DNA of 64,000 bases from Eledone cirrhosa (Eukaryota), in assembly GCA_964016885.1 (NCBI GenBank), contig OZ024765.1, forward strand, positions 20,460,001 through 20,524,000. The letters are read 5' to 3'. The notes beneath the pieces are model-generated. The model searched no databases and had not been told where the DNA came from. It saw only the letters and a list, made by a program, of their open reading frames with translations. The translations under genes and the position numbers were made by a program. This document shows, piece by piece, positions 21,256 to 64,000 of this stretch (its first letter is position 1; each line of letters opens with the position of its first letter).

Positions 21256-21273
21256 ATTAAAATAACAGATTAA

Positions 21274-21324
21274 AGTTTAAGCAAAGAATCGCTGCTTTCA
21301 CCCTTAACGGTATCTTCTGAAACT
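21274..21324 (-). ncRNA. Degenerate type I hammerhead ribozyme motif in the Penelope 3' region
   Basis: AGUUU-CAGAAGA-UACCGUUAAGGGU-GAA-AGCA-loop-UGCU-U-AAACU; stems I and III pair, but the core has a U4-to-A mismatch. Confidence 0.5.
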
Positions 21325-21414
21325 AACAAAGTCAATCTGTAAACGCAGAACTGGATATTTCAAAAAACCTTGCAATCGGAGGAAGACAGGAAGACGATAC
21401 TTTGGTTCGTGGTA

Positions 21415-21680
21415 ACGTTCGCTGGCAAAGAATGGGAAAAAACGAATAATACGTCATTAATTAGGAGCGGTGAAAAACAATTACGCGCAAAGACAAAACC
21501 ACGTTTATGGTATAAAAAGAGTCGTAGACTAATGTTCTCTTAGGTGGTGCATAGAGACGTTCTCTGGCAATGAACGAAAAAACGAAGATAATAAGTCATA
21601 TGTGGAGCGTGGAGAACAATAGCACGCAAAGACAAAACCACGTAAATGGTATAGCAGAAATCGTAGACTAAAATTCTAAC
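21415..21680. repeat. Diverged ~142-bp tandem duplication in Penelope 3' region
   Basis: acgttc.ctggcaa...gcaaagacaaaaccacgt..atggtata...tcgtagactaa occurs at ~21415 and ~21557. Confidence 0.8.
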
Positions 21681-22923
21681 TAGGAGACCGAATGATTCTC
21701 CGCTACAGAGTTAAGAACAAAGTAAATAAATACAATACAGAAGTAATAGGAACAAATAAATACATACACGCAAACAGATACGTACATACACAAGCATACG
21801 CAAAACCTTACCATGGGTATACAAAACCACGCACATATAAATATGTGTGTGTATGCTTGTGTACAAATAAATAAATAATTATATAAACGTATATAAGTAA
21901 ATAAATACGTATATAACAAGCGCACACGCATACCTACATATAAATACACGAATGTTCGGAGACGTCAGTCAACTAAAACAAGAAGTACACATATACACAC
22001 ACCCACCATACGTACGAACCTGCACACTCACGCGGACGCCAAACTCCCGTATACACATAGCCAAACCCTAAATACCAGAATATGTAAAAATGATACGCTA
22101 TAACAGTCAAATATACGTACGAGAAGGTATACATACCTTCACAAAACATACGGGTAATATATACTTACCTATGCAAATACGTAAAGGAATAAACAAAACA
22201 TATACTTAGCTCCCACATCAAGACGTAAAATATCCACGTATAGATCGTGCTATCCGTTAGGGTATAACGGGGCTGTAATACAGGAAAGTTTTGTGCAATT
22301 TATGTTTACAAGCCGAAATTGCCTCAGATTTTTTGTTTAAGATGTAGTCTGTAGCGTAGAGTATTTCCAGGGCCTCAGCGGCGCAGAGGTCACATGGTCT
22401 TTTATTTCCGTTATACGATCTAGCCCTAGCTAGGATCTCCCAGTGTAACTTATATTGGGTGTGGTTGTCTTTTAGACTCCAGATATAAGCTGAAAGTGAC
22501 GTCATATTCCTTCTTAGAGGGTAACGAAAAGAATGGGTATGCATGTAAAGACGCTGCTTGAAACTATTGGCGGTTAACCCTATGTAGGCCCTACGGGACG
22601 TGGGTGTTACAACCTTACATTTGTAGACAATGTTACTAGAGAGGCATTTCCCGGATAGGGGGCAATCAGCCCGATTCCTACAATTACAGTTAGCACTACC
22701 TACAGGATTGCACGTGTTCCTACGGCTAGGTAGTTTAGCTAAATTTGAAGCTGTGATGTTATGTGCAAGGTTAGGAGTCGTAGAGTAAGAAATTTTAATA
22801 GTATTTCTATTAAAAATTTTACTATATTTATGTGTAGGGGGAAATGCTTCGTAATAAGGGAAAGAAAGATCTTAGCTAATTTAATATTTATAAAGTTACT
22901 TTTTTATTTTTGTTTTATACTAT

Positions 22924-23012
22924 AAAAAATATAATACGACACACTGCCAGTGATTGAACCCCGGACCTGGACTTCCACCGGCTCTTATACATACCACTAG
23001 GCTAAAGGAACG
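22924..23012 (-). ncRNA. Pol III-type tRNA-like module M1 (in every unit)
   Basis: A box TAGCCTAGTGG (23004-22994), B box GGTTCAATCAC (22960-22950), T6 terminator, upstream TTTATAAATA. Confidence 0.55.
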
Positions 23013-23060
23013 GTTACGGAAACTTACTGAAAATTGATATTTATAAACCTACTTTTTCAT

Positions 23061-23235
23061 TACTAGAAAAAACCGGAAGTGGAGAAAATTGAAAAACATC
23101 TTCTTTTTCTTCCTCTGATTTTTTTTTATCCAAAATTTGGATTTAAGTCAGAGACGAGTTATCGTTCGTGGCAAAAATCAGAGGAAGAAAAAGAAAAAGT
23201 TTTTCAATTTTCTCCACTTCCGGTTTTTTCTAGTA
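23061..23235. other. Long inverted repeat/hairpin (~63-bp arms) with branched loop (in every unit)
   Basis: tactagaaaaaaccggaagtggagaaaattgaaaaac..tctttttcttcctctgattttt / aaaaatcagaggaagaaaaaga..gtttttcaattttctccacttccggttttttctagta. Confidence 0.92.
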
Positions 23236-23275
23236 TAGGTAAGTAAATATTAATTTTCAATGCATTTTTGTAACC

Positions 23276-23348
23276 GTCCCTGTGGCCTAATGGTAAGCAC
23301 TAGAGACGGTGGAGATCCTGATTTAGGGTTCGATTTCCGTTAGGTTTT
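23276..23348 (+). ncRNA. Pol III-type tRNA-like module M2 (in every unit)
   Basis: A box TGGCCTAATGG (23283), B box GGTTCGATTTCC (23327), TTTT at 23345. Confidence 0.6.
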
Positions 23349-23631
23349 ATACTAATAATGCTGTACTTTGTAGTAATGTCCCATATTATATTCAACATAT
23401 TTTAATTAAAATTTTTTTTTTTATAAAAGAAAGAACAAAAAAACCTTATTGAAATTAAGAAATGAATTTTATTCAGTAAAGTTGTTTTTATTTTGTTTTC
23501 ACTTCATTAACTGCTGAATACGTCTTTTGTTTTTGTTTTTGATTCTTTCTAACCATTGTTTACTGTGAATGGTGACTGCAACGAACCTGGATTATTACCA
23601 AGTTTCACTGGATGATTGTATTATTTTGTTG

Positions 23632-23703
23632 TCAGTGGACATCTGGACATCTATCTAAATACCTGGAATAAACACAAGGTGTGTGTTTTACGTAACATTT
23701 CAT
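23632..23703 (-). CDS. Candidate micro-ORF or terminal exon A: MKCYVKHTPCVYSRYLDRCPDVH*
   Basis: Paralogous to 25511-25573; followed by AATAAA signals at ~23487 and ~23468; possible acceptor TTTATTCCAG|G at 23663. Confidence 0.35.
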   Translation of the reverse strand: MKCYVKHTPCVYSRYLDRCPDVH

Positions 23704-24037
23704 TTTAATGTCTGATGTTCCTGTATTTCACATTTAAAATGTCACCAAAAATAAACAAGACAGGGACGCTACATCAAAATAAACCACACAGACGAGGTAC
23801 GAATAATCTAAAATTAATTTTAACAAACTATAAACGATGTTTAAAGAGAGACGAACATTAAAATAGGATTTCAAACAAACACGTAAACACAAAGACAATT
23901 ACAGCCGCCATAATCTAATATCTGAAGATCAACATTTTTCACGATAGAAATAAAACTAAATATGTAAAGTTTAGTGGCCCCTGATTTACTTGCTTTTAAT
24001 TTCATTTTGATAATCTGTATTCTGTAGACATATATTT

Positions 24038-24700
24038 ATGATTTTAATGATGAAATTTCCTCTTGTCTTTAAAAGATTATTACTTATAAAAATTATAATA
24101 GTCACCTCCTCCTCTGGATTAATATGTAGCTTACCCACAGGGGTTCCTCAACTGGGCGGTTTCAACTGCTGGGTGGGCGATGAGCAGCTGAACAGAAAAT
24201 TGAGAGCCATTGGAAACTTTGGTGGCCGATATAGAATTTTGAGATTTAAGAAGGTATGCTACCCGAAAACCTATTCAAGGAATATATGCAAAGAACCTGA
24301 ATAAAAATCAGGAAGCTAATTGGGAAAATTAAACCAGGAACAAACATTTACGAAACATATTTGGTATACTTTGGAATATTTACTATACAGGTGGCTGGTG
24401 GAACATTCTTTCATGTGAATGTGGGAAATGACGCCAAAATATTTGGCAACCCTTGGCTTACACCTTACTAAATGTTCTGGAGACAAGCCTCTTAGCTATA
24501 TATCATAGTTCTTCAATCCTTCATCTTCCACAGTTGGTGAAGTATTTCGATTTGATATGACGATCGCAGAGTTAGATTTAGGACGTGGTGGCGTTCATCG
24601 GTTTCTTAGTGTTGTTACTAGAAAGGGTCGACTCTGTCTTTCACACTTCAGGTTTTTTCATGAATTAAATATCCATTTTCTTTCTGATCGGTCTAACAAT
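24038..24700 (+). pseudogene. Decayed non-LTR RT fragment, R1/Loa-like (in every unit)
   Basis: SSRLIYSIIRGSLPTGVPQLGG (long allele) resembles the RT motif 'LSSRxIxxx..IRxxVTRGxPQGG'; downstream similarity is weak and frameshifted. Confidence 0.5.
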
Positions 24701-24834
24701 GATTCGAACCTACAATGACTCCGTCTGTAATAATGTTCTCTTATTTGAAATATGCCATACCTAACTCCAGTGTCTGTGTGTGTGAAAAATATTCCAACTT
24801 AGAGCGACGTGCCCGTAAATTGTTTAGCCTGATT

Positions 24835-24845
24835 CCTATATATAG
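24835..24845 (-). promoter_or_regulatory. Candidate TATA box of cassette A
   Basis: TATATATAGG ~80 nt upstream of AG|GTATGG donor (24760), with TTGTAG acceptor at 24710. Confidence 0.35.
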
Positions 24846-25109
24846 ATAATGTGTAATATTTGAACCTTCATGGAGGGTCTTTGCCGTAATTTCCCGTAAC
24901 TCCGACTAGAAGTCATTATGTAGTTTTTTCGTCCGTTAAAAATAATGATTAAAACAATTCTATATCCACAGTTATATACACCTCTTCATCACATATTATA
25001 TTATTTCCACCAATAACTACATTATATCCTTAAATATGACACCAAGACATATAATTTGTAAATAAAAGATAAAATATTAAAACCTCAATTTTTAAATAAT
25101 TTTACCCAC

Positions 25110-25250
25110 CTTTGTGTTCTCAGTGTTTAGATTAACCATAATTTTATGATTTTGGAGCATATAACTTATAGTACCAGTCATGTACTGGGATCAATTTAAC
25201 GGATTGGTTCCTCCCCGCAAATTACTTGACTTTTGCCTAAGTAAGACATA
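25110..25250 (+). mobile_element. Decayed SINE of the 7607 family (in every unit)
   Basis: tagtaccagtcatgtactgggatcaatttaacggattggttcctccccgcaaattacttgacttttgcctaag aligns by eye with the SINE 3' part at 7487-7593. Confidence 0.65.
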
Positions 25251-25510
25251 CTCACAGAATGTATCGATGTATATGTATGAATCTATATATATATATATAT
25301 TAGTATATTTTATGTTTACAATAAAAATAGACAAACAATTTAATGATAATATGAAATGAAATTATTATTATTTATTAATAATATTTTTATTGTTTTCACT
25401 GCATTAACTTCTGAGTGTGACTTACTATTTTCTACTGTAAATGGCGGCTTAATTGGATTATTACTAAGGTTTACTGGATTGTGGTGTTTCTTTATTGTTT
25501 TATATTTCAA

Positions 25511-25573
25511 TCAGTGGACATCAGGATAGCTTTCTATATACCTGGGATAAATGTAAAGAGTACTGACTTTCAT
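25511..25573 (-). CDS. Candidate micro-ORF or terminal exon B: MKVSTLYIYPRYIESYPDVH*
   Basis: Paralogous to 23632-23703; acceptor-like TTTATCCCAG|G at 25542; AATAAA downstream at ~25386 and ~25371. Confidence 0.35.
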   Translation of the reverse strand: MKVSTLYIYPRYIESYPDVH

Positions 25574-25794
25574 CTGCAGTTCAATGGTGATGTCTTCTTA
25601 TATTTTCATTTACTTCTGCAATACTGTAGTCTTTCATTATTTTAAATATTTCTATCATGTCACTCGTTTAATATATCTCCCCGAAAGATATAGTTATTCA
25701 GAGCTTTACATTGGAATAGTGTACTACTATTTAAATATTAGTCCTTTAAATATATATTTCTATCATGTCCTACCCCCCCCCCCCCCCCCCCGTC

Positions 25795-26400
25795 TTAGAT
25801 TTATCTCCTCTAAATTTGCAATCCCTAAAGTTTAACATCTTTCTTCAGAAGACGATTTCTTAATAATTCTGGTGTTTTCTGTTTTGTTCTTTTCTGGATT
25901 CCTTCAATAGCTTCTCCGTATTTTCTGAAGTCGTCTGACCATGCCCAAAACAATATTCTAGGTCGTATCACACATATCATTCAACTAGTGTTTTAGACCT
26001 CTCGACATTTAGCTAGGCAAAGGAATGTTTTATTATTCCTATCATCTGAATTCCTTTTTTTTCTTCAACATGTTTAGCCATCTTTAAAATCATATTCATA
26101 CATATTCACAATTCCTCGTGGAGAGGTATAAGAGACATGTATAAATATAGCTGCATATTACTACAAATAACTTGAACCATATCGCGAAACATTTTGTAAA
26201 GTATCTCTGTAATTATTCTCATTTCGATTTTCTGTAGAATGTATTGACGTTTAAGATAGAGACAATTGCCCTTCTTCTAATAATCTCTTTGTCCATTGCA
26301 TGTTTAGTCTCACAAAATATTGTTAATGCAAGATTTTGCTCTAATGTAATAAATGTTACTTTTAAAAGACCGAAGTTCTCAATTTTCTTCTTTCTCTTGT
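25795..26400 (-). pseudogene. Decayed, internally deleted CR1/L2-type LINE ORF2 fragment (in every unit)
   Basis: Minus-strand pieces across frameshifts and copies: RAKSCINNIL / EWTKRLLEEG / KMAKHVEE / QMIGIIKHSFA / LEYCFGAWSDDFRKYGEAIEGIQKRTKQKTPELLRNLSSEERC*TLGIANLE. These parallel the CR1 'LEYCSSVWSP..KKDIDAIEKVQRRATK..LRNLSYEERL..LGL.SLE' region. Confidence 0.8.
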
Positions 26401-26526
26401 ATATTGATATCTAAAGGATGACAAATGTATGAATTATGTGATAGGGAGGAAAAAAGCCACGACCTTCTTCTCTCGTTACAGAAGGCTAACTGACAACGTC
26501 TTTCGCAGGAGTGACTAGTACTACTG

Positions 26527-26539
26527 CCTTTTATATACC
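26527..26539 (-). promoter_or_regulatory. Candidate TATA box of cassette B
   Basis: Canonical TATATAAAAGG ~70 nt upstream of AAG|GTCGTG donor (26463), with CCTTTAG acceptor at 26411. Confidence 0.45.
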
Positions 26540-27181
26540 GTGACAACTGGAAAGACGTGACAAATAAGGATACACTCTGCTCTCCTTATCAACATTGTCC
26601 GAGTCTGAGGACCTTTCCTCCCTGGTTAAGGAGTGAGATAAAATATTAGGGATCAATCTCTAGCAATAATTTCATTAAATCATATTTAACCAGAGACTTA
26701 TGTCGTGGTTGTTGCTATATTTCATAGTCGTGGTTTCAATGTTTAACAGGGGTTGTAGAATTAGCTTTATCTAATTATTATCAAACAAAACAGATTTATA
26801 TATTGTCGCCGTTGTACGTTAAAATCACATATATATTTATATACACACCAAGGATGGAGGGACGACGGAATTGAAAAGCATTATTGCTGAGTACATCACG
26901 GCAAGAATCTAATCTAATACACACAAACACTCTCCCGTATATATTTAATAATCAGCTATGACCATGAAGAAGGTCCCTGTAGATCATCTGGTTGTAGGAT
27001 CTAATGAACCCGAAAGAAAGTGAAAATATATTTTATGAAAGCCCCAGAAGAATAAATGTAAACATTGACCCGATTATAGTAGAAATAAGAATGAGAAAGC
27101 CATGAACGCCAGCACATCTATTTTGCTTGGAAATTGAAAGTAGGTTTATAAATATAAATGTTTTCTTATGTTCTTGTATCT

Positions 27182-27269
27182 GTTTCGTTGGCCTAATGGT
27201 AGGTGTTAGAGACTATGTAGACACTGATGTGGTGTTCAATCTCAGTCCGAATCTGTACTATATATTTTT
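27182..27269 (+). ncRNA. Pol III-type tRNA-like module M3 (in every unit)
   Basis: Upstream AGTAGGTTTATAAATAT, A box TGGCCTAATGG (27189), B-like GTGTTCAATCTC, T5 at 27265. Confidence 0.5.
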
Positions 27270-27295
27270 AAATTAAAATTTTTCTCTAGTAAAGT

Positions 27296-27390
27296 AAAAA
27301 ATGAAATTATTATCTCTAGACTTTGACTGAAATCGAAACCCAGAGCAGGTTCTCCACCGTCTCTAATACCTACCATTAGGCCACGGAGAC
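27296..27390 (-). ncRNA. Pol III-type tRNA-like module M4 (in complete units)
   Basis: A box TGGCCTAATGG (27383-27373), B-like GGTTTCGATTTC, T6 terminator, upstream AGTAACTTTATAAATAT. Confidence 0.5.
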
Positions 27391-30300
27391 AGATATAAAG
27401 ACAGTGTGAAAATTAATATTTATAAAGTTACTTTTTTAGTTTTGTTTTATACTATAAAAAATATAATACGACACACTGCCAGTGATTGAACCTTGGACCT
27501 GGACCTTCACCGGCTCTTATACTTACCACTAGGCTAAAGGGACAGTTACGGAAACTTACTGAAAATTGATATTTATAAACCTACTTTTTCATTACTAGAA
27601 AAAACCGGAAGTGGAGAAAATTGAAAAACATCTTCTTTTTCTTCCTCTGATTTTTTTTTATCCAAAATTTGGATTTAAGTCAGAGACGAGTTATCGTTCG
27701 TGGCAAAAATCAGAGGAAGAAAAAGAAAAAGTTTTTCAATTTTCTCCACTTCCGGTTTTTTCTAGTATAGGTAAGTAAATATTAATTTTCAATGCATTTT
27801 TCTAACCGTCCCTGTGGCCTAATGGTTAGCACTAGAGACGGTGGAGATCCTGATTTAGGGTTCGATGTCCGTTAGGTTTTATACTAATAACTGCGTATTT
27901 GTTGCTTTTATTAAGTAAGATTTGAACTAATAATGCTGTACTTTGTAGTAATGTCCCATATTATATTCAACATATTTTAATAAAAAATTTTTTTTTTTAT
28001 AAAAGAAAGAACAAAAAACCTTATTGAAATTAAGAAATGAATTTTATTCAGTAAAGTTGTTTTTATTTTGTTTTCACTTCATTAACTGCTGAATACGTCT
28101 TTTGTTTTTGTTTTTGATTCTTTCTAACCATTGTTTACTGTGAATGGTGACTGCAACGAACCTGGATTATTACCAAGTTTCACTGGATGATTGTATTATT
28201 TTGTTGTCAGTGGACATCTGGACATCTATCTAAATACCTGGAATAAACACAAGGTGTGTGTTTTACGTAACATTTCATTTTAATGTCTGATGTTACTGTA
28301 TTTCACATTTAAAATGTAACCAAAAATAAACAAGACATGGACGCTACATCAAAATAAACCACACAGACGAGGTACGAATAATCTAAAATTAATTTTAACA
28401 AACTATAAACGATGTTTAAAGAGAGACGAACATTAAAATAGGATTTCAAACAAACACGTAAACACAAAGACAATTACAGCCGCCATAATCTAATATCTGA
28501 AGATCAACATTTTTCACGATAGAAATAAAACTAAATATGTAAAGTTTAGTGGCCCCTAATTTACTTGCTTTTAATTTCATTTTGATAATCTGTATTCTGT
28601 TGACATATATTTATGATTTTAATGATAAAATTTCCTCATGTCTTTAAAAGATTATTACTTATAAAAATTATAATAGTCACCTCCTCCTCTGGATTAATAT
28701 GTAGCTTACCCACAGGGGTTCCTCAACTGGGCGGTTTCAACTGTTGGGTGGGCGATGAGCAGCTGAACAGAAAATTGAGGGCCATTGGAAACTTTGGTGG
28801 CCGATATAGAATTTTGAGATTTAAAAAGGTATGCTACCCGAAAACCTATTCAAGGAATATATGCAAAGAACCTGAATAAAAATCAGGAAGCTAATTGGGA
28901 AAATTAAACCAGGAACAAACATTTACGAAACATATTTGGTATACTTTGGAATATTTACTATACAAGTGGCTGGTGGAACATTCTTTCATGTGAATGTGGG
29001 AAATGACGCCAAAATATTTGGCAACCCTTGGCTTACACCTTACTAAATGTTCTGGAGACAAGCCTCTTAGCTATATATCATAGTTCTTCAATTCTTCATC
29101 TTCCACAGTTGGTGAAATATTTCGATTTGATATGACGATCGCAGAGTTAGATTTAGGACGTGGTGGCGTTCATCGGTTTCTTAGTGTTGTTACTAGAAAG
29201 GGTCGACTCTGTCTTTCACACTTCAGGTTTTTTCATGAATTAAATATCCATTTTCTTTCTGATCGGTCTAACAATGATTTGAACCTACAATGACTCCGTC
29301 TGTAATAATGTTCTCTTATTTGAAATATGCCATACCTAACTCCCGTGTCTGTGTGTGTGAAAAATATTCCAACTTAGAGCGACGTGCCCGTAAATTGTTT
29401 AGCCTGATTCCTATATATAGATAATGTGTAATATTTGAACCTTCATGGAGGGTCTTTGCCGTAATTTCCCGTAACTCCGACTAGAAGTCATTATGTAGTT
29501 TTTTCGTCCGTTAAAAATAATGATTAAAACAATTCTATATCCACAGTTATATACACCTCTTCATCACATATTATATTATTTCCACCAATAACTACATTAT
29601 ATCCTTAAATATGACACCAAGACATATAATTTGTAAATAAAAGATAAAATATTAAAACCTCAATTTTTAAATAATTTTACCCCACCTTTGTGTTCAGGTT
29701 AACCCATAATTTTATGATTTTGGAGCATATAACTTATCGTCCCAGTCATGTACTGGGATCAATTTAACGGATTGGTTCCTCCCCGCAAATTACTTGACTT
29801 TTGCCTAAGTAAGACATACTCACAGAATGTATCGATGTACATGTATGAATGTATATATATATATATATATTAGTATATTTTATGTTTACAATAAAAATAG
29901 ACAAACAATTTAATGATAATATGAAATGAAATTATTATTATTTATTAATAATATTTTTATTGTTTTCACTGCATTAACTTCTGAGTGCGACTTTGTTTTT
30001 CTTATTATCTTCTACTGTAAATGGCGGCTTAATTGGATTATTACTAAGGTTTACTGGATTGTGGTGTTTCTTTATTGTTTTATATTTCAATCAGTGGACA
30101 TCAGGATAGCTTTCTATATACCTGGGATAAATGTAAATAGTACTGACTTTCATCTGCAGTTCAATGGTGATGTCTTCTTATATTTTCATTTACTTCTGCA
30201 ATACTGTATATTGTAGTCTTTTCATTATTTTAAATATTTCTATCATGTCACTCGTTTGATATATCTCCCCGAAAGATATAGTTATTCAGAGCTTTACATT

Positions 30301-31497
30301 GGAATAGTGTACTACTATTTAAATATTAGTCCTTTAAATATATATTTCTATCATGTACACCCCCCCCCCCTCTTAGATTTATCTCCTCTAAATTTGCAAT
30401 CCCTAAAGTTTAACATCTTTCTTCAGAAGACAGATTTCTTAATGATTCTGGTGTTTTCTGTTTTGTTCTTTTCTGGATTCCTTTAATAGCTTCTCCGTAT
30501 TTTTTGAAGTCGTCTGACCATGCCCCAAAACAATATTCTAGGTCGTATCACACATATCATTCAACTAGTGTTTTAGACCTCTCGACATTTAGCTAGGCAA
30601 AGGAATGTTTTATTATTCCTATCATCTGAATTCCTTTTTTTTCTTCAACATGTTTAGCCATCTTTAAAATCATATTCATACATATTCACAATTCCTCGTG
30701 GAGGGGTATAAGAGACATGTATAAATATAGCTGCATATTACTACAAAATAACTTGAACCGTATCGCGAAACATTTTGTAAAGTATCTCTGTAATTATTCT
30801 CATTTCGATTTTCTGTAGAATGTATTGACGTTTAAGATAGAGACAATTGCCCTTCTGCTAATAATCTCTTTGTCCATTCCATGTTTAGTCTCACAAAATA
30901 TTGTTAATGTAAGATTTTGCTCTAATGTAATAAATGTTACTTTTAAAAGACCGAAGTTCTCAATTTTCTTCTTTCTCTTGTATATTGATATCTAAAGGAT
31001 GACAAATGTATGAATTATGTTATAGGGAGGGAAAAAAAGCCACGACCTTCTTCTCTCGTTACAGAAGGCTAACTGACAACGTCTTTCGCAGGAGTGACTA
31101 GTACTACTGCCTTTTATATACCGTGACAACTGGAAAGACGTGACAAATAAGGATACACTCTGCTCTCCTTATCAACATTGTCCGAGTCTGAGGACCTTTC
31201 CTCCCTGGTTAAGGAGTGAGATAAAATATTAGGGATCAATCTCTAGCAATAATTTCATTAAATCATATTTAACCAGAGACTGTTATGTCGTGGTTGTTGC
31301 TATATTTTATAGTCGTGGTTTCAATGTTTAACAGGGGTTGTAGAATTAGCTTTATCTAATTATTATCAAACAAAACAGATTTATATATTGTCGCCGTTGT
31401 ACGTTAAAATCACATATATATTTATATACACACCAAGGATGGAGGGACGACGGAATTGAAAACGATTATTGCTGAGTACATCACGGCAAGATCTAAT

Positions 31498-31528
<31 letters not shown>

Positions 31529-34500
31529 CCCGTATATATTTAATAATCAGCTATGACCATGAAGAAGGTCCCTGTAGATCATCTGGTTGTAGGATCTAAT
31601 GAACCCGAAAGAAAGTGAAAATATATTTTATGAAAGCCCCAGAAGAATAAATGTAAACATTGACCCGATTATAGTAGAAATAAGAATGAGAAAGCCATGA
31701 ACGCCAGCACATCTATTTTGCTTGGAAACTGAAAGTAGGTTTATAAATATAAATTTTTTCTTATGTTCTTGTATCTGTTTCGTTGGCCTAATGGTAGGTG
31801 TTAGAGACTATGTAGACACTGATGTGGTGTTCAATCTCAGTCCGAATCTGCACTATATATTTTTAAATTAAAATTTGTCTCTAGTAAATTAAAAAATGAA
31901 ATTATTATCTATAGACTTTGACTAAAATCGAAACCCAGAGCAGGTTCTCCACCGTCTCTAATACCTACCATTAGGCCACGGAGACAGATACAAAAACAGT
32001 GTGAAAATTAATATTTATAAAGTTACTTTTTTATTTTTGTTTTATACTATAAAAACTATAATACGACACACTGCCAGTGATCGAACCCTGGACCTGGACC
32101 TCCACCAGCTCTTATACTTACCACTAGGCTAAAGGGACGGTTACGGAAACTTACTGAAAATTGATATTTATAAACCTACTTTTTCATTACTAGAAAAAAC
32201 CGGAAGTGGAGAAAATTGAAAAACATCTTCTTTTTCTTCCTCTGATTTTTTTTTATCCAAAATTTGGATTTAAGTCAGAGACGAGTTATCGTTCGTGGCA
32301 AAAATCAGAGGAAGAAAAAGAAAAAGTTTTTTAATTTTCTCCACTTCCGGTATTTTCTAGTATAGGTAAGTAAATATTAATTTTCAATGCATTTTTCTAA
32401 CCGTCCCTGTGGCCTAATGGTAAGCACTAGAGACGGTGGAGATCCTGATTTAGGGTTCGATTTCCGTTAGGTTTTATACTAATAACTGCGTATTTGTTGC
32501 TTTTATTAAGTAAGATTTGAACTAATAATGCTGTACTTTGTAGTAATGTCCCATATTATATTCAACATATTTTAAATAAAACTTTTTTTTTTTATAAAAG
32601 AAAGAACAAAAAACCTTATTGAAATTAAGAAATGAATTTTATTCAGTAAAGTTGTTTTTATTTTGTTTTCACTTCATTAACTGCTGAATACGTCTTTTGT
32701 TTTTGTTTTTGATTCTTTCTAACCATTGTTTACTGTGAATGGTGACTGCAACGAACCTGGATTATTACCAAGTTTCACTGGATGATTGTATTATTTTGTT
32801 GTCAGTGGACATCTGGACATCTATCTAAATACCTGGAATAAACACAAGGTGTGTGTTTTACGTAACATTTCATTTTAATGTCTGATGTTCCTGTATTTCA
32901 CATTTAAAATGTAACCAAAAATAAACAAGACAGGGACGCTACATCAAAATAAACCACACAGACGAGGTACGAATAATCTAAAATTAATTTTAACAAACTA
33001 TAAACGATGTTTAAAGAGAGACGAACATTAAAATAGGATTTCAAACAAACACGTAAACACAAAGACAATTACAGCCGCCATAATCTAATATCTGAAGATC
33101 AACATTTTTCACGATAGAAATAAAACTAAATATGTAAAGTTTAGTGGCCCCTAATTTACTTGCTTTTAATTTCATTTTGATAATCTGTATTCTGTTGACA
33201 TATATTTATGATTTTAATGATAAAATTTCCTCATGTCTTTAAAAGATTATTACTTATAAAAATTATAATAGTCACCTCCTCCTCTGGATTAATATGTAGC
33301 TTACCCACAGGGGTTCCTCAACTGGGCGGTTTCAACTGTTGGGTGGGCGATGAGCAGCTGAACAGAAAATTGAGGGCCATTGGAAACTTTGGTGGCCGAT
33401 ATAGAATGTTGGGATTTAAGAAGGTATGCTACCCGAAAACCTATTCAAGGAATATATGCAAAGAACCTGAATAAAAATCAGGAAGCTAATTGGGAAAATT
33501 AAACCAGGAACAAACATTTACGAAACATATTTGGTATACTTTGGAATATTTACTATACAGGTGGCTGGTGGAACATTTTTTCATGTGAATGTGGGAAATG
33601 ACGCCAAAATATTTGGCAACCCTTGGCTTACACCTTACTAAATGTTCTGGAGACAAGCCTCTTAGCTATATATCATAGTTCTTCAATCCTTCATCTTCCA
33701 CAGTTGGTGAAGTATTTCGATTTGATATGACGATCGCAGAGTTAGATTTAGGACGTGGTGGCGTTCATGGGTTTCTTAGTGTTGTTACTAGAAAGGGTCG
33801 ACTCTGTCTTTCACACTTCAGGTTTTTTTCATGAATTAAATATCCATTTTCTTTCTGATCGGTCTAACAATGATTCGAACCTACAATGACTCCGTCTGTA
33901 ATAATGTTCTCGTATTTGAAATATGTCATACCTAACTCCCGTGTCTGTGTGTGTGAAAAATATTCCAACTTAGAGCGACGTGCCCGTAAATTGTTTAGCC
34001 TGATTCCTATATATAGATAATGTGTAATATTTGAACCTTCATGGAGGGTCTTTGCCGTAATTTCCCGTAACTCCGACTAGAAGTCATTATGTAGTTTTTT
34101 CATCCGTTAAAAATAATGATTAAAACAATTCTATATCCACAGTTATATACACCTCTTCATCACATATTATATTATTTCCACCAATAACTACATTATATCC
34201 TTAAATATGACACCAAGACATATAATTTGTAAATAAAAGATAAAATATTAAAACCTCAATTTTTAAATAATTTTACCCCACCTTTGTGTTCTCAGTGTTT
34301 AGATTAACCCATAATTTTATGATTTTGGAGCATATAACTTATAGTACCAGTCATGTACTGGGATCAATTTAACGGATTGGTTCCTCCCCGCAAATTACTT
34401 GACTTTTGCCTAAGTAAGACATACTCACAGAATGTATCGATGTACATGTATGAATGTATAGATATATATATATATTAGTAATTTTATGTTTACAATAAAA

Positions 34501-37500
34501 ATAGACAAACAATTTAATGATAATATGAAATGAAATTATTATTATTTATTAATAATATTTTTATTGTTTTCACTGCATTAACTTCTGAGTGCGACTTTGT
34601 TTTTCTTATTATCTTCTACTGTAAATGGCGGCTTAATTGGATTATTACTAAGGTTTACTGGATTGTGGTGTTTCTTTATTGTTTTATATTTCAATCAGTG
34701 GACATCAGGATAGCTTTCTATATACCTGGGATAAATGTAAATAGTACTGACTTTCATCTGCAGTTCAATGGTGATGTCTTCTTATATTTTCATTTACTTC
34801 TGCAATACTGTATATTGTAGTCTTTTCATTATTTTAAATATTTCTATCATGTCACTCGTTTGATATATCTCCCCGAAAGATATAGTTATTCAGAGCTTTA
34901 CATTGGAATAGTGTACTACTATTTAAATATTAGTCCTTTAAATATATATTTCTATCATGTCCCCCCCCCCCACCCTCTTAGATTTATCTCCTCTAAATTT
35001 GCAATCCCTAAAGTTTAACATCTTTCTTCAGAAGACGATTTCTTAATAATTCTGGTGTTTTCTGTTTTGTTCTTTTCTGGATTCCTTCAATAGCTTCTCC
35101 GTATTTTCTGAAGTCGTCTGACCATGCCCCAAAACAATATTCTAGGTCGTATCACATATCATTCAACTAGTGTTTTAGACCTCTCGACATTTAGCTAGGC
35201 AAAGGAATGTATTATTATTCCTATCATCTGAATTCCTTTTTTCTCTTCATGTTTAGCCATCTTTAAAATCATATTCATACATATTCACAATTCCTCGTGG
35301 AGGGGTATAAGAGACATGTATAAATATAGCTGCATATTACTACAAAATAACTTGAACCATATCGCGAAACATTTTGTAAATTATCTCTGTAATTATTCTC
35401 ATTTCGATTTTCTGTAGAATGTATTGACGTTTAAGATAGAGACAATTGCCCTTCTAATAATCTCTTTGTCCATTCCATGTTTAGTCTCACAAAATATTGT
35501 TAATGCAAGATTTTGTTCTAATGTAATAAATGTTACTTTTAAAAGACCGAAGTTCTCAATTTTCTTCTTTCTCTTGTATACTGATATCTAAAGGATGACA
35601 AATGTATGAATTATGTGATAGGGAGGAAAAAAGCCACGACCTTCTTCTCTCGTTACAGAAGGCTAACTGACAACGTCTTTCGCAGGAGTGACTCGTACTA
35701 CTGCCTTTTATATATCGTGACAACTGGAAAGACGTGACAAATAAGGATACACTCTGCTCTCCTTATTAACATTGTCCGAGTCTGAGGACCTTTCCTCCCT
35801 GGTTAAGGAGTGAGATAAAATATTAGGGATCAATCTCTAGCAATAATTTCATTAAATCATATTTAACCAGAGACTGTTATGTCGTGGTTGTTGCTATATT
35901 TTATAGTCGTGGTTTCAATGTTTAACAGGGGTTGTAGAATTAGCTTTATCTACTTATTATCAAACAAAACAGATTTATATATTGTCGCCGTTGTACGTTA
36001 AAATCACATATATATTTACATACACACCAAGGATGGAGGGACGACGGAATTGAAAAGCATTATTGCTGAGTACATCACGGCAAGATCTAATACACACACA
36101 CACACACACTCTCCCGTATATATTTAATAATCAGCTATGACCATGAAGAAGGTCCCTGTAGATCATCTGGTTGTAGGATCTAATGAACCCGAAAGAAAGT
36201 GAAAATATATTTTATGAAAGCCCCAGAAGAATAAATGTAAACATTGACCCGATTATAGTAGAAATAAGAATGAGAAAGCCATGAACGCCAGCACATCTAT
36301 TTTGCTTGGAAATTGAAAGTAGGTTTATAAATATAAATGTTTTCTTATGTTCTTGTATCTGTTTGGTAGGTGTTAGAGACTATGTAGACACTGATATGGT
36401 GTTCAATCTCAGTCGGAATCTGTACTATATATTTTTAAATTTAAATTTTTCTCTAGTAAAGTAAAAAATGAAATTATTATCTATAGACTTTGACTGAAAT
36501 CGAAACCCAGAGCAGGTTCTCCACCGTCTCTAATACCTACCATTAGGCCACGGAGACAGATATAAAAACAGTGTGAAAATTAATATTTATAAAGTTACTT
36601 TTTTATTTTATACCATAAAAGATATAATACGACACACTGCCAGTGATTGAACCCCGGACCTGGACCTCCACCGGCTCTTATACTTACCACTAGGCTAAAG
36701 GGACAGTTACGGAAACTTATTGAAAATTGATATTTATAAACCTACTTTTTCATTACTAGAAAAAACCGGAAGTGGAGAAAATTGAAAAACATCTTCTTTT
36801 TCTTCCTCTGATTTTTTTTTATCCAAAATTTGGATTTAAGTCAGAGACGAGTTATCGTTCGTGGCAAAAATCAGAGGAAGAAAAAGAAAAAGTTTTTCAA
36901 TTTTCTCCACTTCCGGTTTTTTCTAGTATAGGTAAGTAAATATTAATTTTCAATGCATTTTTCTAACCGTCCCTGTGGCCTAATGGTAAGCACTAGAGAC
37001 GGTGGAGATCCTGATTTAGGGTTCGATTTCCGTTAGGTTTTATACTAATAACTGCGTATTTGTTGCTTTTATTAAGTAAGATTTGAACTAATAATGCTGT
37101 ACTTTGTAGTAATGTCCCATATTATATTCAACATATTTTAATTAAAATTTTTTTTTTTTATAAAAGAAAGAACAAAAAACCTTATTGAAATTAAGAAATG
37201 AATTTTATTCAGTAAAGTTGTTTTTATTTTGTTTTCACTTCATTAACTCCTGAATACGTCTTTTGTTTTTGTTTTTGATTCTTTCTAACCATTGTTTACT
37301 GTGAATGGTGACTGCAACGAACCTGGATTATTACCAAGTTTCACTGGATGATTGTATTATTTTGTTGTCAGTGGACATCTGGACATCTATCTAAATACCT
37401 GGAATAAACACAAGGTGTGTGTTTTACGTAACATTTCATTTTAATGTCTGATGTTCCTGTATTTCACTTTTAAAATGTAACCAAAAATAAACAAGACAGG

Positions 37501-40500
37501 GACGCTACATCAAAATAAACCACACAGACGAGGTACGAATAATCTAAAATTAATTTTAACAAACTATAAACGATGTTTAAAAAGAGACGAACATTAAAAT
37601 AGGATTTCAAACAAACACGTAAACACAAAGACAATTACAGCCGCCATAATCTAATATCTGAAGATCAACATTTTTCACGATAGAAATAAAACTAAATATG
37701 TAAACTTTAGTGGCCCCTGATTTACTTGCTTTTAATTTCATTTTGATAATCTATATTCTGTAGACATATATTTATGATTTTAATGATGAAATTTCCTCTT
37801 GTCTTTAAAAGATTATTACTTATAAAAATTATAATAGTCACCTCCTCCTCTCGATTAATATATAGCATCATTCGAGGTAGCTTACCCACAGGGGTTCCTC
37901 AACTGGGCGGTTTCAACTGTTGGGTGGGCGATGAGCAGCTGAACAGAAAATTGAGGGCCATTGGAAACTTTGGTGGCCGATATAGAATTTTGAGATTTAA
38001 GAAGGTATGCTACTCGAAAACCTATTCAAGGAATATATGCAAAGAACCTGAATAAAAATCAGGAAGCTAATTGGGAAAATTAAACCAGGAACAAACATTT
38101 ACGAAACATATTTGGTATACTTTGGAATATTTACTATACAGGTGGCTGGTGGAACATTTTTTCATGTGAATGTGGGAAATGACGCCAAAATATTTGGCAA
38201 CCCTTGGCCTACACCTTACTAAATGTTCTGGAGACAAGCCTCTTAGCTATATATCATAGTTCTTCAATCCTTCATCTTCCACAGTTGGTGAAGTATTTCG
38301 ATTTGATATGACGATCGCAGAGTTAGATTTAGGACGTGGTGGCGTTCATGGGTTTCTTAGTGTTGTTACTAGAAAGGGTCAACTCTGTCTTTCACACTTC
38401 AGGTTTTTTCATGAATTAAATATCGATTTTCTTTCTGATCGGTCTAACAATGATTTGAACCTACAATGACTCCGTCTGTAATAATGTTCTCTTATTTGAA
38501 ATATGCCATACCTAACTCCCGTGTCTGTGTGTGTGAAAAATATTCCAACTTAGAGCGACGTGCCCGTAAATTGTTTAGCCTGATTCCTATATATATAGAT
38601 AATGTGTAATATTTGAACCTTCATGGAGGGTCTTTGCCGTAATTTCCCGTAACTCCGACTAGAAGTCATTATGTAGTTTTTTCGTCCGTTAAAAATAATG
38701 ATTAAAACAATTCTATATCCACAGTTATATACACCTCTTCATCACATATTATATTATTTCCACCAATAACTACATTATATCCTTAAATATGACACCAAGA
38801 CATATAATTTGTAAATAAAAGATAAAATATTAAAACCTCAATTTTTAAATAATTTTACCCCACCTTTGTGTTCAGGTTAACCCATAATTTTATGATTTTG
38901 GAGCATATAACTTATAGTACCAGTCATGTACTGGGATCAATTTAACGGATTGGTTCCTCCCCGCAAATTACTTGACTTTTGCCTAAGTAAGACATACTCA
39001 CAGAATGTATCGATGTATATGTATGAATCTATATATATATATATATTAGTATATTTTATGTTTACAATAAAAATCGACAAACAATTTAATGATAATATGG
39101 AATGAAATTATTATTTATTAATAATATTTTTATTGTTTTCACTGCATTAACTTCTGAGTGTGACTTTGTTTTTCTTACTATTTTCTACTGTAAATGGCGG
39201 CTTAATTGGATTATTACTAAGGTTTACTGGATTGTGGTGTTTCTTTATTGTTTTATATTTCAATCAGTGGACATCAGGATAGCTTTCTATATACCTGGGA
39301 TAAATGTAAAGGGTACTGACTTTCATCTGCAGTTCAATGGTGATGTCTTCTTATATTTTCATTTACTTCTGCAATACTGTATATTGTAGTCTTTTCATTA
39401 TTTTAAATATTTCTATCATGTCACTCGTTTGATATATCTCCCCGAAAGATATAGTTATTCAGAGCTTTACATTGGAATAGTGTACTACTATTTAAATATT
39501 AGTCCTTTAAATATATATTTCTATCATGTCCCCCACCCCCACCCCCACTTAGATCTATCTCCTCTAAATTTGCAATCCCTAAAGTTTAACATCTTTCTTC
39601 AGAAGACGATTTCTTAATAATTCTGGTGTTTTCTGTTTTGTTCTTTTCTGGATTCCTTCAATAGCTTCTCCGTATTTTCTGAAGTCGTCTGACCATGCCC
39701 CAAAACAATATTCTAGGTCGTATCACACATATCATTCAACTAGTGTTTTAGACCTCTCGACATTTAGCTAGGCAAAGGAATGTTTTATTATTCCTATCAT
39801 CTGAATTCCTTTTTTTTCTTCAACATGTTTAGCCATCTTTAAAATCATATTCATACATATTCACAATTCCTCGTGGAGGGGTATAAGAGACATGTATAAA
39901 TATAGCTGCATATTACTACAAAATAACTTAAACCATATCGCGAAACATTTTGTAAAGTATCTCTGTAATTATTCTCATTTCGATTTTCTGTAGAATGTAT
40001 TGACGTTTAAGATAGAGACAATTGCCCTTCTTCTAATAATCTCTTTGTTCATTCCATGTTTAGTCTCACAAAATATTGTTAATGCAAGATTTTGCTCTAA
40101 TGTAATAAATGTTACTTTTAAAAGACCGAAGTTCTCAATTTTCTTCTTTCTCTTGTATATTGATATCTAAAGGATGACAAATGTATGAATTATGTGATAG
40201 GGAGGAAAAAAGCCACGACCTTCTTCTCTCGTTACAGAAGGCTAACTGACAACGTCTTTCGCAGGAGTGACTAGTACTACTGCCTTTTATATACCGTGAC
40301 AACTGGAAAGACGTGACAAATAAGGATACACTCTGCTCTCCTTATCAACATTGTCCGAGTCTGAGGACCTTTCCTCCCTGGTTAAGGAGTGAGATAAAAT
40401 ATTAGGGATCAATCTCTAGCAATAATTTCATTAAATCATATTTAACCAGAGACTTATGTCGTGGTTGTTGCTATATTTCATAGTCGTGGTTTCAATGTTT

Positions 40501-43500
40501 AACAGGGGTTGTAGAATTAGCTTTATCTAATTATTATCAAACAAAACAGATTTATATATTGTCGCCGTTGTACGTTAAAATCACATATATATTTATATAC
40601 ACACCAAGGATGGAGGGACGACGGAATTGAAAACCATTATTGCTGAGTACATCACGGCAAGAATCTAATCTAATACACACACACACTCTCCCGTATATAT
40701 TTAATAATCAGCTATGACCATGAAGAAGGTCCCTGTAGATCATCTGGTTGTAGGATCTAATGAACCCGAAAGAAAGTGAAAATATATTTTATGAAAGCCC
40801 CAGAAGAATAAATGTAAACATTGACCCGATTATAGTAGAAATAAGAATGAGAAAGCCATGAACGCCAGCACATCTATTTTGCTTGGAAATTGAAAGTAGG
40901 TTTATAAATATAAATGTTTTCTTATGTTCATGTATCTGTTTCGTTGGCCTAATGGTAGGTGTTAGAGACTATGTAGACACTGATGTGGTGTTCAATCTCA
41001 GTCCGAATCTGTACTATATATTTTTAAATTTAAATTTTTCTCTAGTAAAGTAAAAAATGAAATTATTATCTATAGACTTTGACTGAAATCGAAACCCAGA
41101 GCAGGTTCTCCACCGTCTCTAATAGGCCACGGAGACAGATATAAAGACAGTGTGAAAATTAATATTTATAAAGTTACTTTTTTAGTTTTGTTTTATACTA
41201 TAAAAAATATAATACGACACACTGCCAGTGATTGAACCCCGGACCTGGACCTCCACCGGTTCTTATACTTACCACTAGGCTAAAGGGACGGTTACGGAAA
41301 CTTACTGAAAATTGATATTTATAAACTTACTTTTTCATTACTAGAAAAAACCGGAAGTGGAGAAAATTGAAAAACATCTTCTTTTTCTTCCTCTGATTTC
41401 TTTTTATCCAAAATTTGGATTTAAGTCAGAGACGAGTTATCGTTCGTGGCAAAAATCAGAGGAAGAAAAAGAAAAAGTTTTTCAATTTTCTCCACTTCCG
41501 GTTTTTTCTAGTATAGGTAAGTAAATATTAATTTTCAATGCATTTTTGTAACCGTCCCTGTGGCCTAATGGTTAGCGCTAGAGACGGTGGAGATCCTGAT
41601 TTAGGGTTCGATGTCCTTTAGGTTTTATACTAATAACTGCGTATTTGTTGCTTTTATTAAGCAAGATTTGAACTAATAATGCTGTACTTTGTAGTAATGT
41701 ACCATATTATATTCAACATATTTTAATTAAAATTTTTTTTTTTATAAAAGAAAGAACAAAAAACCTTATTGAAATTAAGAAATGAATTTTATTCAGTAAA
41801 GTTGTTTTTATTTTGTTTTCACTTCATTAACTGCTGAATACGTCTTTTGTTTTTGTTTTTGATTCTTTCTAACCATTGTTTACTGTGAATGGTGACTGCA
41901 ACGAACCTGGATTATTACCAAGTTTCACTGGATGATTGTATTATTTTGTTGTCAGTGGACATCTGGACATCTATCTAAATACCTGGAATAAACACAAGGT
42001 GTGTGTTTTACGTAACATTTCATTTTAATGTCTGATGTTCCTGTATTTCACATTTAAAATGTAACCAAAAATAAACAAGACAGGGACGCTACATCAAAAT
42101 AAACCACACAGACGAGGTACGAATAATCTAAAATTAATTTTAACAAACTATAAACGATGTTTAAAGAGAGACGAACATTAAAATAGGATTTCAAACAAAC
42201 ACGTAAACACAAAGACAATTACAGCCGCCATAATCTAATATCTGAAGATCAACATTTTTCACGATAGAAATAAAACTAAATATGTAAAGTTTAGTGGCCC
42301 CTGATTTACTTGCTTTTAATTTCATTTTGATAATCTGTATTCTGTAGACATATATTTATGATTTTAATGATGAAATTTCCTCTTGTCTTTAAAAGATTAT
42401 TGCTTATAAAAATTAAAATAGTCACCTCCTCCTCTCGATTAATATGTAGCTTACCCACAGGGGTTCCTCAACTGGGCGGTTTCAACTGTTGGGTGGGCGA
42501 TGAGCAGCTGAACAGAAAATTGAGGGCCATTGGAAACTTTGGTGGCCGATATAGAATGTTGAGATTTAAGAAGGTATGCTACCCGAAAACCTATTCAAGG
42601 AATATATGCAAAGAACCTGAATAAAAATCAGGAAGCTAATTGGGAAAATTAAACCAGGAACAAACATTTACGAAACATATTTGGTATACTTTGGAATATT
42701 TACTATACAGGTGGCTGGTGGAACATTTTTTCATGTGAATGTGGGAAATGACGCCAAAATATTTGGCAACCCTTGGCTTACACCTTACTAAATGTTCTGG
42801 AGACAAGCCTCTTAGCTATATATCATAGTTCTTCAATCCTTCATCTTCCACAGTTGGTGAAGTATTTCGATTTGATATGACGATCGCAGAGTTAGATTTA
42901 GGACGTGGTGGCGTTCATGGGTTTCTTAGTGTTGTTACTAGAAAGGGTCGACTCTGTCTTTCACACTTCAGGTTTTTTTCATGAATTAAATATCCATTTT
43001 CTTTCTGATCGGTCTAACAATGATTCGAACCTACAATGACTCCGTCTGTAATAATGTTCTCGTATTTGAAATATGTCATACCTAACTCCCGTGTCTGTGT
43101 GTGTGAAAAATATTCCAACTTAGAGCGACATGCCCGTAAATTGTTTAGCCTGATTCCTATATATAGATAATGTGTAATATTTGAACCTTCATGGAGGGTC
43201 TTTGCCCTAATTTCCCGTAACTCCGACTAGAAGTCATTATGTAGTTTTTTCGTCCGTTAAAAATAATGATTAAAACAATTCTATATCCACAGTTATATAC
43301 ACCTCTTCATCACATATTATATTATTTCCACCAATAACTACATTATATCCTTAAATATGACACCAAGACATATAATTTGTAAATAAAAGATAAAATATTA
43401 AAACCTCAATTTTTAAATAATTTTACCCCACCTTTGTGTTCTCAGTGTTTAGATTAACCCATAATTTTATGATTTTGGAGCATATAACTTATAGTACCAG

Positions 43501-46500: not shown

Positions 46501-48213
46501 CGAACCTGGATTATTACCAAGTTTCACTGGATGATTGTATTATTTTGTTGTCAGTGGACATCTGGACATCTATCTAAATACCTGGAATAAACACAAGGTG
46601 TGTGTTTTACGTAACATTTCATTTTAATGTCTGATGTTCCTGTATTTCACATTTAAAATGTAACCAAAAATAAACAAGACAGGGACGCTACATCAAAATA
46701 AACCACACAGACGAGGTACGAATAATCTAAAATTAATTTTAACAAACTATAAACGATGTTTAAAGAGAGACGAACATTAAAATAGGATTTCAAACAAACA
46801 CGTAAACACAAAGACAATTACAGCCGCCATAATCTAATATCTGAAGATCAACATTTTTCACGATAGAAATAAAACTAAATATGTAAAGTTTAGTGGCCCC
46901 TAATTTACTTGCTTTTAATTTCATTTTGATAATCTGTATTCTGTAGACATATATTTATGATTTTAATGATGAAATTTCCTCTTGTCTTTAAAAGATTATT
47001 ACTTATAAAAATTATAATAGTCACCTCCTCCTCTCGATTAATATATAGCATCCTTCGAGGTAGCTTAGCCACAGGGGTTCCTCAACTGGGCGGTTTCAAC
47101 TGTTGGGTGGGCGATGAGCAGCTGAACAGAAAATTGAGGGCCATTGGAAACTTTGGTGGCCGATATAGAATTTTGAGATTTAAGAAGGTATGCTACCCGA
47201 AAACCTATTCAAGGAATATATGCAAAGAACCTGAATAAAAATCAGGAAGCTAATTGGGAAAATTAAACCAGGAACAAACATTTACGAAACATATTTGGTA
47301 TACTTTGGAATATTTACTATACAGGTGGCTGGTGGAACATTTCTTCATGTGAATGTGGGAAATGACGCCAAAATATTTGGCAACCCTTGGCTTACACCTT
47401 ACTAAATTTTCTGGAGACAAGCCTCTTCGCTATATATCATAGTTCTTCAATCCTTCATCTTCCACAGTTGGTGAAGTATTTCGATTTGATATGACGATCG
47501 CAGAGTTAGATTTAGGACGTGGTGGCGTTCATGGGTTTCTTAGTGTTGTTACTAGAAAGGGTCGACTCTGTCTTTCACACTTCAGGTTTTTTCATGAATT
47601 AAATATCGATTTTCTTTCTGATCGGTCTAACAATGATTTGAACCTACAATGACTCCGTCTGTAATAATGTTCTCTTATTTGAAATATGCCATACCTAACT
47701 CCCGTGTCTGTGTGTGTGAAAAATATTCCAACTTAGAGCGACGTGCCCGTAAATTGTTTAGCCTGATTCCTATATATAGATAATGTGTAATATTTCAACC
47801 TTCATGGAGGGTCTTTGCCGTAATTTCCCGTAACTCCGACTAGAAGTCATTATGTAGTTTTTTCGTCCGTTAAAAATGATTAAAACAATTCTATATCCAC
47901 AGTTATATACACCTCTTCATCACATATTATATTATTTCCACCAATAACTACATTATATCCTTAAATATAAAACCAAGACATATAATTTGTAAATAAAAGA
48001 TAAAATATTAAAACCTCAATTTTTAAATAATTTTACCCCACCTTTGTGTTCTCAGTGTTTAGATTAACCCATAATTTTATGATTTTGGAGCATATAACTT
48101 ATAGTACCAGTCATGTACTGGGATCAATTTAACGGATTGGTTCCTCCCCGCAAAATACTTGACTATTGCCTAAGTAAGACATACTCACAGAATGTATCGA
48201 TGTATATGTATGA

Positions 48214-48262
<49 letters not shown>

Positions 48263-63200: not shown

Positions 63201-64000
63201 CAACGTCTTTCGCAGGAGTGACTAGTACTACTGCCTTTTATATACTGTGACAACTGGAAAGACGTGACAAATAAGGATACACTCTGCTCTCCTTGTCAAC
63301 ATTGTCCGAGTCTGTGGACCTTTCCTCCCTGGTTAAGGAGTGAGATAAAATATTAGGGATCAATCTCTAGCAATAATTTCATTAAATCATATTTAACCAG
63401 AGACTGTTATGTCGTGGTTGTTGCTATATTTTATAGTCGTGGTTTCAATGTTTAACAGGGGTTGTAGAATTAGCTTTATCTAATTATTATCAAACAAAAC
63501 AGATTTATATATTGTCGCCGTTGTACGTTAAAATCACATATATATTTATATACACACCAAGGATGGAGGGACGACGGAATTGAAAACCATTATTGCCGAG
63601 TACATCACGGCAAGATCTAATACACACACACACACACACTCTCCCGTATATATTTAATAATCAGCTATGACCATGAAGAAGGTCCCTGTAGATCACCTGG
63701 TTGTAGGATCTAATGAACCCGAAAGAACGTGAAAATATATTTTATGAAAGCCCCAGAAGAATAAATGTAAACATTGATCCGATTATAGTAGAAATAAGAA
63801 TGAGAAAGCCATGAACGCCAGCACATCTATTTTGCTTGGAAATTGAAAGTAGGTTTATAAATATAAATTTTTTCTTATGTTCTTGTATCTGTTTCGTTGG
63901 CCTAATGGTAGGTGTTAGAGACTATGTAGACACTGATGTGGTGTTCAATCTCAGTCCGAATCTGTACTATATATTTTTAAATTTAAATTTTTCTCTAGTA

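Follow-up and report, generated by a model that had tools for sequence, protein, structure and literature searches.

We tentatively trace the long hairpin at 23061-23235 to an old inverted duplication of a Pol III-type module: it would be the centre of that duplication, with arms that were later homogenised, and would have been amplified passively within a macrosatellite. We put the probability of this reading at about 0.45. The hairpin itself was confirmed as a real feature of the window, i.e., the whole 64,000-nt stretch of Eledone cirrhosa DNA that was analysed. If the preferred reading is right, four tRNA-like Pol III promoter modules form the core of this macrosatellite, and its homogenised palindrome is unusually long. 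The locus would then be of modest interest for the evolution of inverted repeats and a candidate for a small-RNA or boundary locus, one that can be compared with the human 1q23 tRNA array.

The hairpin and its fold

The hairpin consists of three parts:

23061..23123, plus strand: left hairpin arm, 63 bp, with ACCGGAAGTG at 23072-23081
23124..23172, no strand: hairpin loop, 49 nt, with two small stems; identical and in one orientation in 9/9 copies
23173..23235, minus strand: right hairpin arm, 63 bp, with ACCGGAAGTG at 23215-23224 (-)

An earlier, sequence-only reading had described near-perfect arms of ~63 bp around ~49 nt, and this description held: 61 of 63 positions were paired between the arms, which were interrupted by a single small bubble near 23098-23100, and the loop was 49 nt long. 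When the hairpin was folded as ssDNA, the check proposed in that reading, the DNA minimum free energy was -69.6 kcal/mol (z -16.4), and none of 200 shuffles was equally stable. The motif said to be shared by the arms, ACCGGAAGTG, was present in both of them; we take it to be of the ETS type. The GC content was 29% in the arms and 37% in the loop.

The two mini-palindromes described in the loop were found at 23128-23142 and 23154-23165. The first had been drawn as 7 bp closed by 1 nt, but it folded as a 6-bp stem with a 3-nt loop. The second lengthened to a bulged stem of ~10 pairs (23147-23172) that included one G-T pair. Both small stems, which are short and AT-rich, formed on either strand, resulting in a three-way T/Y fold. 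In a post hoc test, the loop was subjected to dinucleotide shuffling while the arm ends were kept fixed; 12 of 2000 shuffles on the plus strand and 31 of 2000 on the minus strand folded equally well, so the Y shape exceeds chance expectation to a modest degree.

Outside the arms, an imperfect symmetry extended over 22953-23334, or ~100-110 bp per side, which is less than the ~130 bp that had been claimed. Nor is the hairpin the symmetry centre of the whole repeat unit, as had been supposed: the unit is asymmetric overall, and its only symmetric parts are the ~380 bp around the hairpin and an older inverted pair at 27137-27434 (70%).

A young head-to-tail array

The hairpin belongs to a tandem array that takes up much of the window:

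22878..64000, plus strand: head-to-tail array, ~4.58-kb unit, extending past the right edge of the window

Nine hairpins were found, starting at 23061, 27593, 32188, 36754, 41339, 45937, 50528, 55124 and 59706, all in the same orientation, with one per head-to-tail unit at a spacing of 4532-4598 bp. No hairpin copies were found beyond the array in the 64-kb window. Pairwise divergence of the array copies was 0.45-1.82%, and the copy tree was shallow; good support was obtained for 3 of its 6 inner branches, and the neighbouring copies 8 and 9 were closest to each other. The small distances and the shallow, partly supported tree indicate that the array is both real and young. An assembly artefact was ruled out by the divergence between copies, the supported branching pattern and the indels that copies have in common. 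The nine units are multi-kb, head-to-tail and of high identity, as in tRNA-gene macrosatellites, and the array is animal chromosomal DNA of the macrosatellite type. Its left edge, at 22878, abuts a truncated retroelement.

Among the nine hairpin copies, six changes were seen in the arms, all of them one-sided. Transitions in a CpG context were in excess among the copies (18 of 188 versus 3.9% of sites), which suggests methylation.

tRNA-like modules beside the hairpin

Four paralogous modules were identified per unit, M4 (+), M3 (-), M1 (-) and M2 (+), of which M1 and M2 flank the hairpin and are both directed away from it:

22910..23049, minus strand: M1; TATA-like box 23037-23047, A-box from 23004, B-box +45 nt, T6 run downstream
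23238..23363, plus strand: M2; weaker TATA-like box near 23244-23253, A-box from 23283, B-box +45 nt, T4 run
27143..27286, plus strand: M4; A-box 27189; convergent with M3
27287..27427, minus strand: M3; A-box 27383; tandem behind M1 of the next copy

Each module had an A-box, a B-box and a T-run downstream of them; a TATA-like block preceded the inferred start by ~30 nt. The offset from A-box to B-box was 45 nt in 4/4 modules, so that all four have the type-2 Pol III architecture, with the two boxes at tRNA-like spacing followed by a T-run. Invariant columns across the four made up 11/13 of the A-box, 6/10 of the B-box and 13/32 of the stretch between the boxes. The box motifs (TRGCY, YGG and GGTTC, the last being degenerate in M3 and M4) agree with those of the tRNA-derived sequences of Helenus (PMC10886601, in part). 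Judged by these sequence signatures, the modules are putative promoters of the RNA polymerase III type, tRNA-like in character. ARAGORN identified no tRNA genes in them, no match to the Rfam tRNA model was obtained, and the consensus fold of the four modules was not a cloverleaf. The boxes were also found to accumulate changes among the array copies. The M1 core (27481-27536 and equivalents) was the most variable region tested, with 9 of 56 columns changed versus 4.4% overall. In Helenus/TRIMp3, non-functional tRNA-like A and B boxes lie inside mobile elements (PMC10886601, in part), whereas an LTR pair was not evident in this unit.

Module identities were 73.7% for M1-M2, 79.4% for M2-M3 and 76% for M1-M4. 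Since the M1-M2 value is not above those of other pairs, the outer symmetry around the hairpin reflects module paralogy. In the core, M1 and M2 agreed at 38/56 positions and M2 and M3 at 47/56, making M3 the nearest relative of the M2 core, while the block upstream of M1 and M2 (35/47) was the most alike of all 6 module pairs. Such upstream DNA, common to the modules, points to duplication at the DNA level rather than to SINE retrocopies. The convergent pair of M4 and M3 makes up the older inverted pair mentioned above, and its T-runs meet near 27285.

The hairpin was also compared with the modules. Only 1 of 20 shuffle tests reached p < 0.05, and the module profile had no match in the hairpin, leading us to reject the idea that it is a decayed fifth module. 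The one test concerned (p = 0.032) was that of loop positions 23135-23161, which resembled the B-box region of M3 at 15 of 18 core bases.

Another account of the palindrome is that it is a selected hairpin-RNA precursor of an endo-siRNA-like kind, or a cruciform element, which we regard as very improbable. Its long stem and the loop that is invariant in 9/9 copies are what would be expected of such an element. However, of the 176 hairpin columns 4 carried substitutions, while the average of the unit, taken over 8 full copies, predicts ~7.7; this deficit is not significant as a sign of purifying selection. In addition, the adjoining modules M1 and M2 point away from the palindrome, and the Rfam miRNA matches stayed below gathering scores, reflecting generic stems. 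Assignment of the hairpin to a known RNA family was rejected, since miRNA and leader matches were sub-threshold only. The hairpin arm gave 0 exact matches in prokaryotic genomes and no similarity to plasmids.

Coding remnants of the unit

Three further segments of the unit were delimited:

25290..26130, minus strand: decayed APE-RT LINE ORF2, 3' part with its inferred 3' end; stops and frameshifts
23411..23735, minus strand: inferred second LINE 3' end; 70-72% DNA similarity to the first, terminal A-run
24050..24850, no strand: region B; one low-stop frame per strand; partial inverted paralogue at ~26810-27118

The similarity to LINE proteins runs from 26123 down to ~25550 and covers the post-RT part of ORF2. 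A phmmer search with the minus-strand frame of copy 9 gave 54 matches at 27-36% identity (best E 7.8e-8). Among 10 of these matches, picked by rank or length, RVT_1 was found in 9 (8 of them over the curated cut-off) and the APE endonuclease family in 3. Scores of the LINE profile on 25290..26130 are circular because the profile was built from that region's own matches; the evidence thus consists of the phmmer matches and their RVT_1 and APE domains. This LINE reverse-transcriptase ORF2 is the sole identifiable coding remnant of the unit. Together with the second LINE 3' segment, it makes ~25% of the unit LINE-derived, which indicates a long residence in the chromosome. Between the LINE fragment and a strong TATA-like box at 26520-26545 (-), which is located upstream, lies the stretch 26130-26500.

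Six-frame read-throughs of the unit, with X at stops, matched no Pfam or PHROG family, and its sub-regions gave two sub-threshold matches only (E 0.55 and 0.055). The absence of families is weak evidence, as the LINE piece and a 204-aa Penelope-like ORF likewise escaped the Pfam scans. Rep/NS1, capsid and transposase were not detected in the unit, by searches that are weak on decayed DNA. Region B is the one place in the unit where a relic of a transposase or Rep could hide. Its low-stop frames showed no codon-position bias. A protein search gave nothing at E <= 1, comparing the many-stop frame with proteins of near lengths and the low-stop minus frame with longer ones; the low-stop plus frame was compared with Pfam and PDB only, and no meaningful PDB match was seen for the region. 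Membership of region B in the same LINE or in the Penelope-like element was rejected, profiles from 54 and 120 homologues having no match there. The inverted paralogous segments 24400-24870 (-) and 26810-27118 (+), which are ~60-68% alike, each start near a TATA-like box.

In its general make-up, the unit resembles the human 1q23.3 tRNA VNTR, in which a multi-kb tandem unit, ~98% identical between copies, contains a partial LINE as well as several tRNA genes, transcribed by Pol III, in both orientations (PMC4041453, in part). The human tRNA genes are intact and their unit is GC-rich (same source, in part), whereas the present unit is AT-rich, its modules fail ARAGORN and Rfam, and a long palindrome lies between two of them. 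Taken singly, the parts of the unit are of known kinds: a LINE fragment and Pol III-type modules also occur together in the human macrosatellite, and the palindrome is a long inverted repeat. A description of this unit, or of the same combination of parts, was not found in the open-access literature.

Comparison with parvoviral termini

One proposal for the palindrome is that it is the junction of a rolling-hairpin or rolling-circle replicon, a parvovirus-like 'double' terminus within an integrated concatemer, with Pol III small-RNA genes inside the ends. We consider it very unlikely; if true, it would be the one outcome to surprise specialists. The Y-shaped loop, modestly above chance, is in its favour, as is the size of the unit, which is near that of small densovirus genomes (4,945 nt, PMC3820778). 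Head-to-tail arrays of parvoviral EVEs are known (PMC12297876, in part), and one bocavirus encodes BocaSR, a Pol III RNA that has A and B boxes (PMC8242256, in part). However, NS1/Rep and capsid were undetected in the unit, about a quarter of which is decayed LINE, and the arms have 29% GC compared to 63% in the ITR of a Y-shaped densovirus (PMC3820778). Past 63 bp, the symmetry is only ~73%, whereas ITRs are described as perfect over ~200 nt (PMC12297876, in part). Of the features that mark a parvoviral terminus, the T/Y-shaped hairpin was found, but not a linked NS1/Rep (HUH plus SF3 helicase) or VP, nor a perfect GC-rich ITR that continues inboard.

The closest viral structure, the ITR of the densovirus AdMADV, shares with the hairpin a long stem with two side arms, inboard TATA boxes and a similar genome or unit size (PMC3820778). 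The AdMADV ITR differs in having 63% GC, side arms within 23 nt, flip/flop orientations, and NS and VP cassettes (PMC3820778), none of which was found here. The origin of parvovirus or densovirus type suggested by the sequence-only reading is poorly supported, given the lack of any Pfam or PHROG family, the LINE ORF2 as the only coding remnant, and the low GC of the arms.

That reading had also proposed looking for flip/flop orientations of the loop among copies. No inverted loops were seen among the nine copies in the window (0/9), which counts only weakly against a replicon, because descent of all copies from one junction would predict the same. Spacers can also be inverted by template switching (PMC8604942, in part), so that flip/flop would not have been diagnostic of a parvoviral terminus either. 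A related reading also seems highly unlikely. In it, the unit would be a non-autonomous, helper-dependent DNA element of an animal (cephalopod-like) host, with a Y-hairpin terminus and, next to each end, a cluster of VA/BocaSR-like Pol III small-RNA genes; it would form chromosomal concatemers as it amplifies through rolling-circle or rolling-hairpin replication.

Origin of the palindrome

According to the preferred reading, a tRNA-like module and its upstream DNA would have undergone an old fold-back duplication in the chromosome. Template switching or conversion within the strand would later have brought the innermost 63 bp to near-identity, whereas sequence farther from the centre of the duplication drifted to ~70%. 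As a result, both divergent modules would be preceded by the same segment, whose ETS-type site lies 60-70 nt ahead of the A-box. The 4.58-kb unit would then have expanded by unequal exchange or through a circular intermediate, carrying the hairpin passively, and breaks at the palindrome may have aided this expansion. The palindrome would have a promoter-flanking or structural role in the macrosatellite and would not be a viral origin.

The duplication and the amplification are evident in the sequence, whereas homogenisation and any promoter role are proposed. Several observations argue for this reading. The arms share the axis of the divergent paralogues M1 and M2 to within 9 nt. Identity declines outward, from 61/63 (97%) in the arms to 35/47 (74%) in the upstream block and 38/56 (68%) in the cores. 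A 12-mer from the outer end of the arms was found again, at one mismatch each, behind M1 and behind M4 (2 occurrences versus 0.1 expected per unit), suggesting that the arm ends arose within the module cluster. Template switching is known to homogenise and extend inverted-repeat arms, also at promoters, and the products resemble the hairpin in their near-perfect arms, spacers of <70 bp, diverged flanks and position by a promoter (PMC8604942, PMC13100816, both in part). In yeast, however, the homogenised arms described are 7-16 bp long, far under the 63 bp seen here (PMC8604942, in part).

Other observations run counter to the preferred reading. The one-sidedness of 6/6 arm changes means that no ongoing homogenisation was seen in the nine copies. 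Identity drops sharply from 97% to ~74%, and it does so where a TA and a 9-nt indel are located, a pattern that an insertion would explain as well. M3 and M4 have no arm upstream except for the 12-mer, and the core of M2 is nearest to that of M3 instead of M1. The above-chance folding of the loop is not required by a duplication model. Finally, transcription of the modules is putative, ARAGORN and Rfam identified no tRNA in them, and their boxes are mutating.

The sharp boundary would also be explained if the hairpin were a young, 171-bp MITE with 61-bp TIRs that inserted at a TA between the TATA boxes of M1 and M2, i.e., in the AT-rich gap between these back-to-back boxes, shortly before the array expanded. 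We judge this unlikely. TA flanks the hairpin on both sides, and TA target-site duplications are the product of Tc1/mariner elements (PMC3014272, in part). The arms, at 97%, are far more alike than any other paralogous sequence in the unit; the hairpin lacks similarity to the modules, as described above; and once it is excised, only an 11-nt spacer lies between the back-to-back M1 and M2. Against an insertion, TA is its own reverse complement, so that the flanking TA is indistinguishable from two extra paired bases. The element would, moreover, have had to land almost on the axis (within ~10 bp) of an inverted pair that already existed, the 12-mer at the arm ends is found elsewhere in the module cluster, and there are zero copies off the array in the 64 kb.

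A TIR-TIR junction had also been inferred in the sequence-only reading. Here, the unit would be a ~4.5-kb non-autonomous cut-and-paste transposon (hAT/P-like) with captured host DNA, the arms being its right and left TIRs, M1 and M2 diverged subterminal repeats, and the loop trapped target DNA; two nearby insertions would have given rise to a head-to-tail dimer, which expanded via unequal exchange. We hold this to be rather unlikely, and if true it would add another TE-derived satellite. In the head-to-tail dimers and arrays of hobo, P and Bari1, which expand by unequal exchange, there is one inverted-repeat junction per head-to-tail unit with a common spacer, as observed here, and extra sequence is present in some P junctions (PMC5932611, in part). 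The inner arm ends read CAGAG, preceded by 6 A/T bases, and fit YARNG, the motif at hAT termini; fragments of other TEs can be taken up by non-autonomous hAT elements (PMC3014272, in part). The YARNG fit requires that 6 further symmetric A/T bases lie outside the element. The spacer of 49-61 nt is not TSD-sized and contrasts with the 8-nt TSD of most intact P junctions (PMC5932611, in part). In addition, the left end of the array at 22878 falls ~245 bp short of the inner arm end, no transposase remnant was found in searches of the unit, and the loop folds above chance.

Two other transposon types were compared with the palindrome. At a canonical Helitron junction, CTAG is expected to be followed by TC; the arms end in CTAG followed by TA, and such a junction was rejected. 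The LTDRs of KolobokP are 450-660 bp long. KolobokP forms tandem multimers in molluscs (PMC9587614, in part), but the present unit had no LTDR of that size and no TTAA flanks at the arm ends.

Sequences left of the array

Two retroelement fragments were found to the left of the array:

21256..22871, minus strand: 5'-truncated Penelope-like endonuclease fragment, abutting the left end of the array and outside the unit
580-969, minus strand: second Penelope-like GIY-YIG fragment; weak GIY-YIG match, E 0.022 at 706-969

The first fragment, which we take to be Penelope-like, includes an open minus-strand stretch of 204 codons at 22260-22871 with 125 homologues at E <= 1e-10; this stretch and its paralogue at 706-969 match one profile. 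The fragment contains a 139-bp tandem duplication (21415-21671), its 3' end abuts (AT)n, and it is joined to the array via a short AT-rich microhomology at the TATA block of M3. A core near 21295-21325 (-), possibly hammerhead-like, had no Rfam match. Further to the left, the window contains a pure (AT)n tract of 7.5 kb (13729-21257), an ORF of 1218 aa encoding a C2H2 zinc-finger array (9704-13357) in 84-bp repeats, many of them 90-100% identical in DNA, and a minisatellite (2685-6219) with units of 79-81 bp, 24-bp sub-repeats and a strong strand skew.
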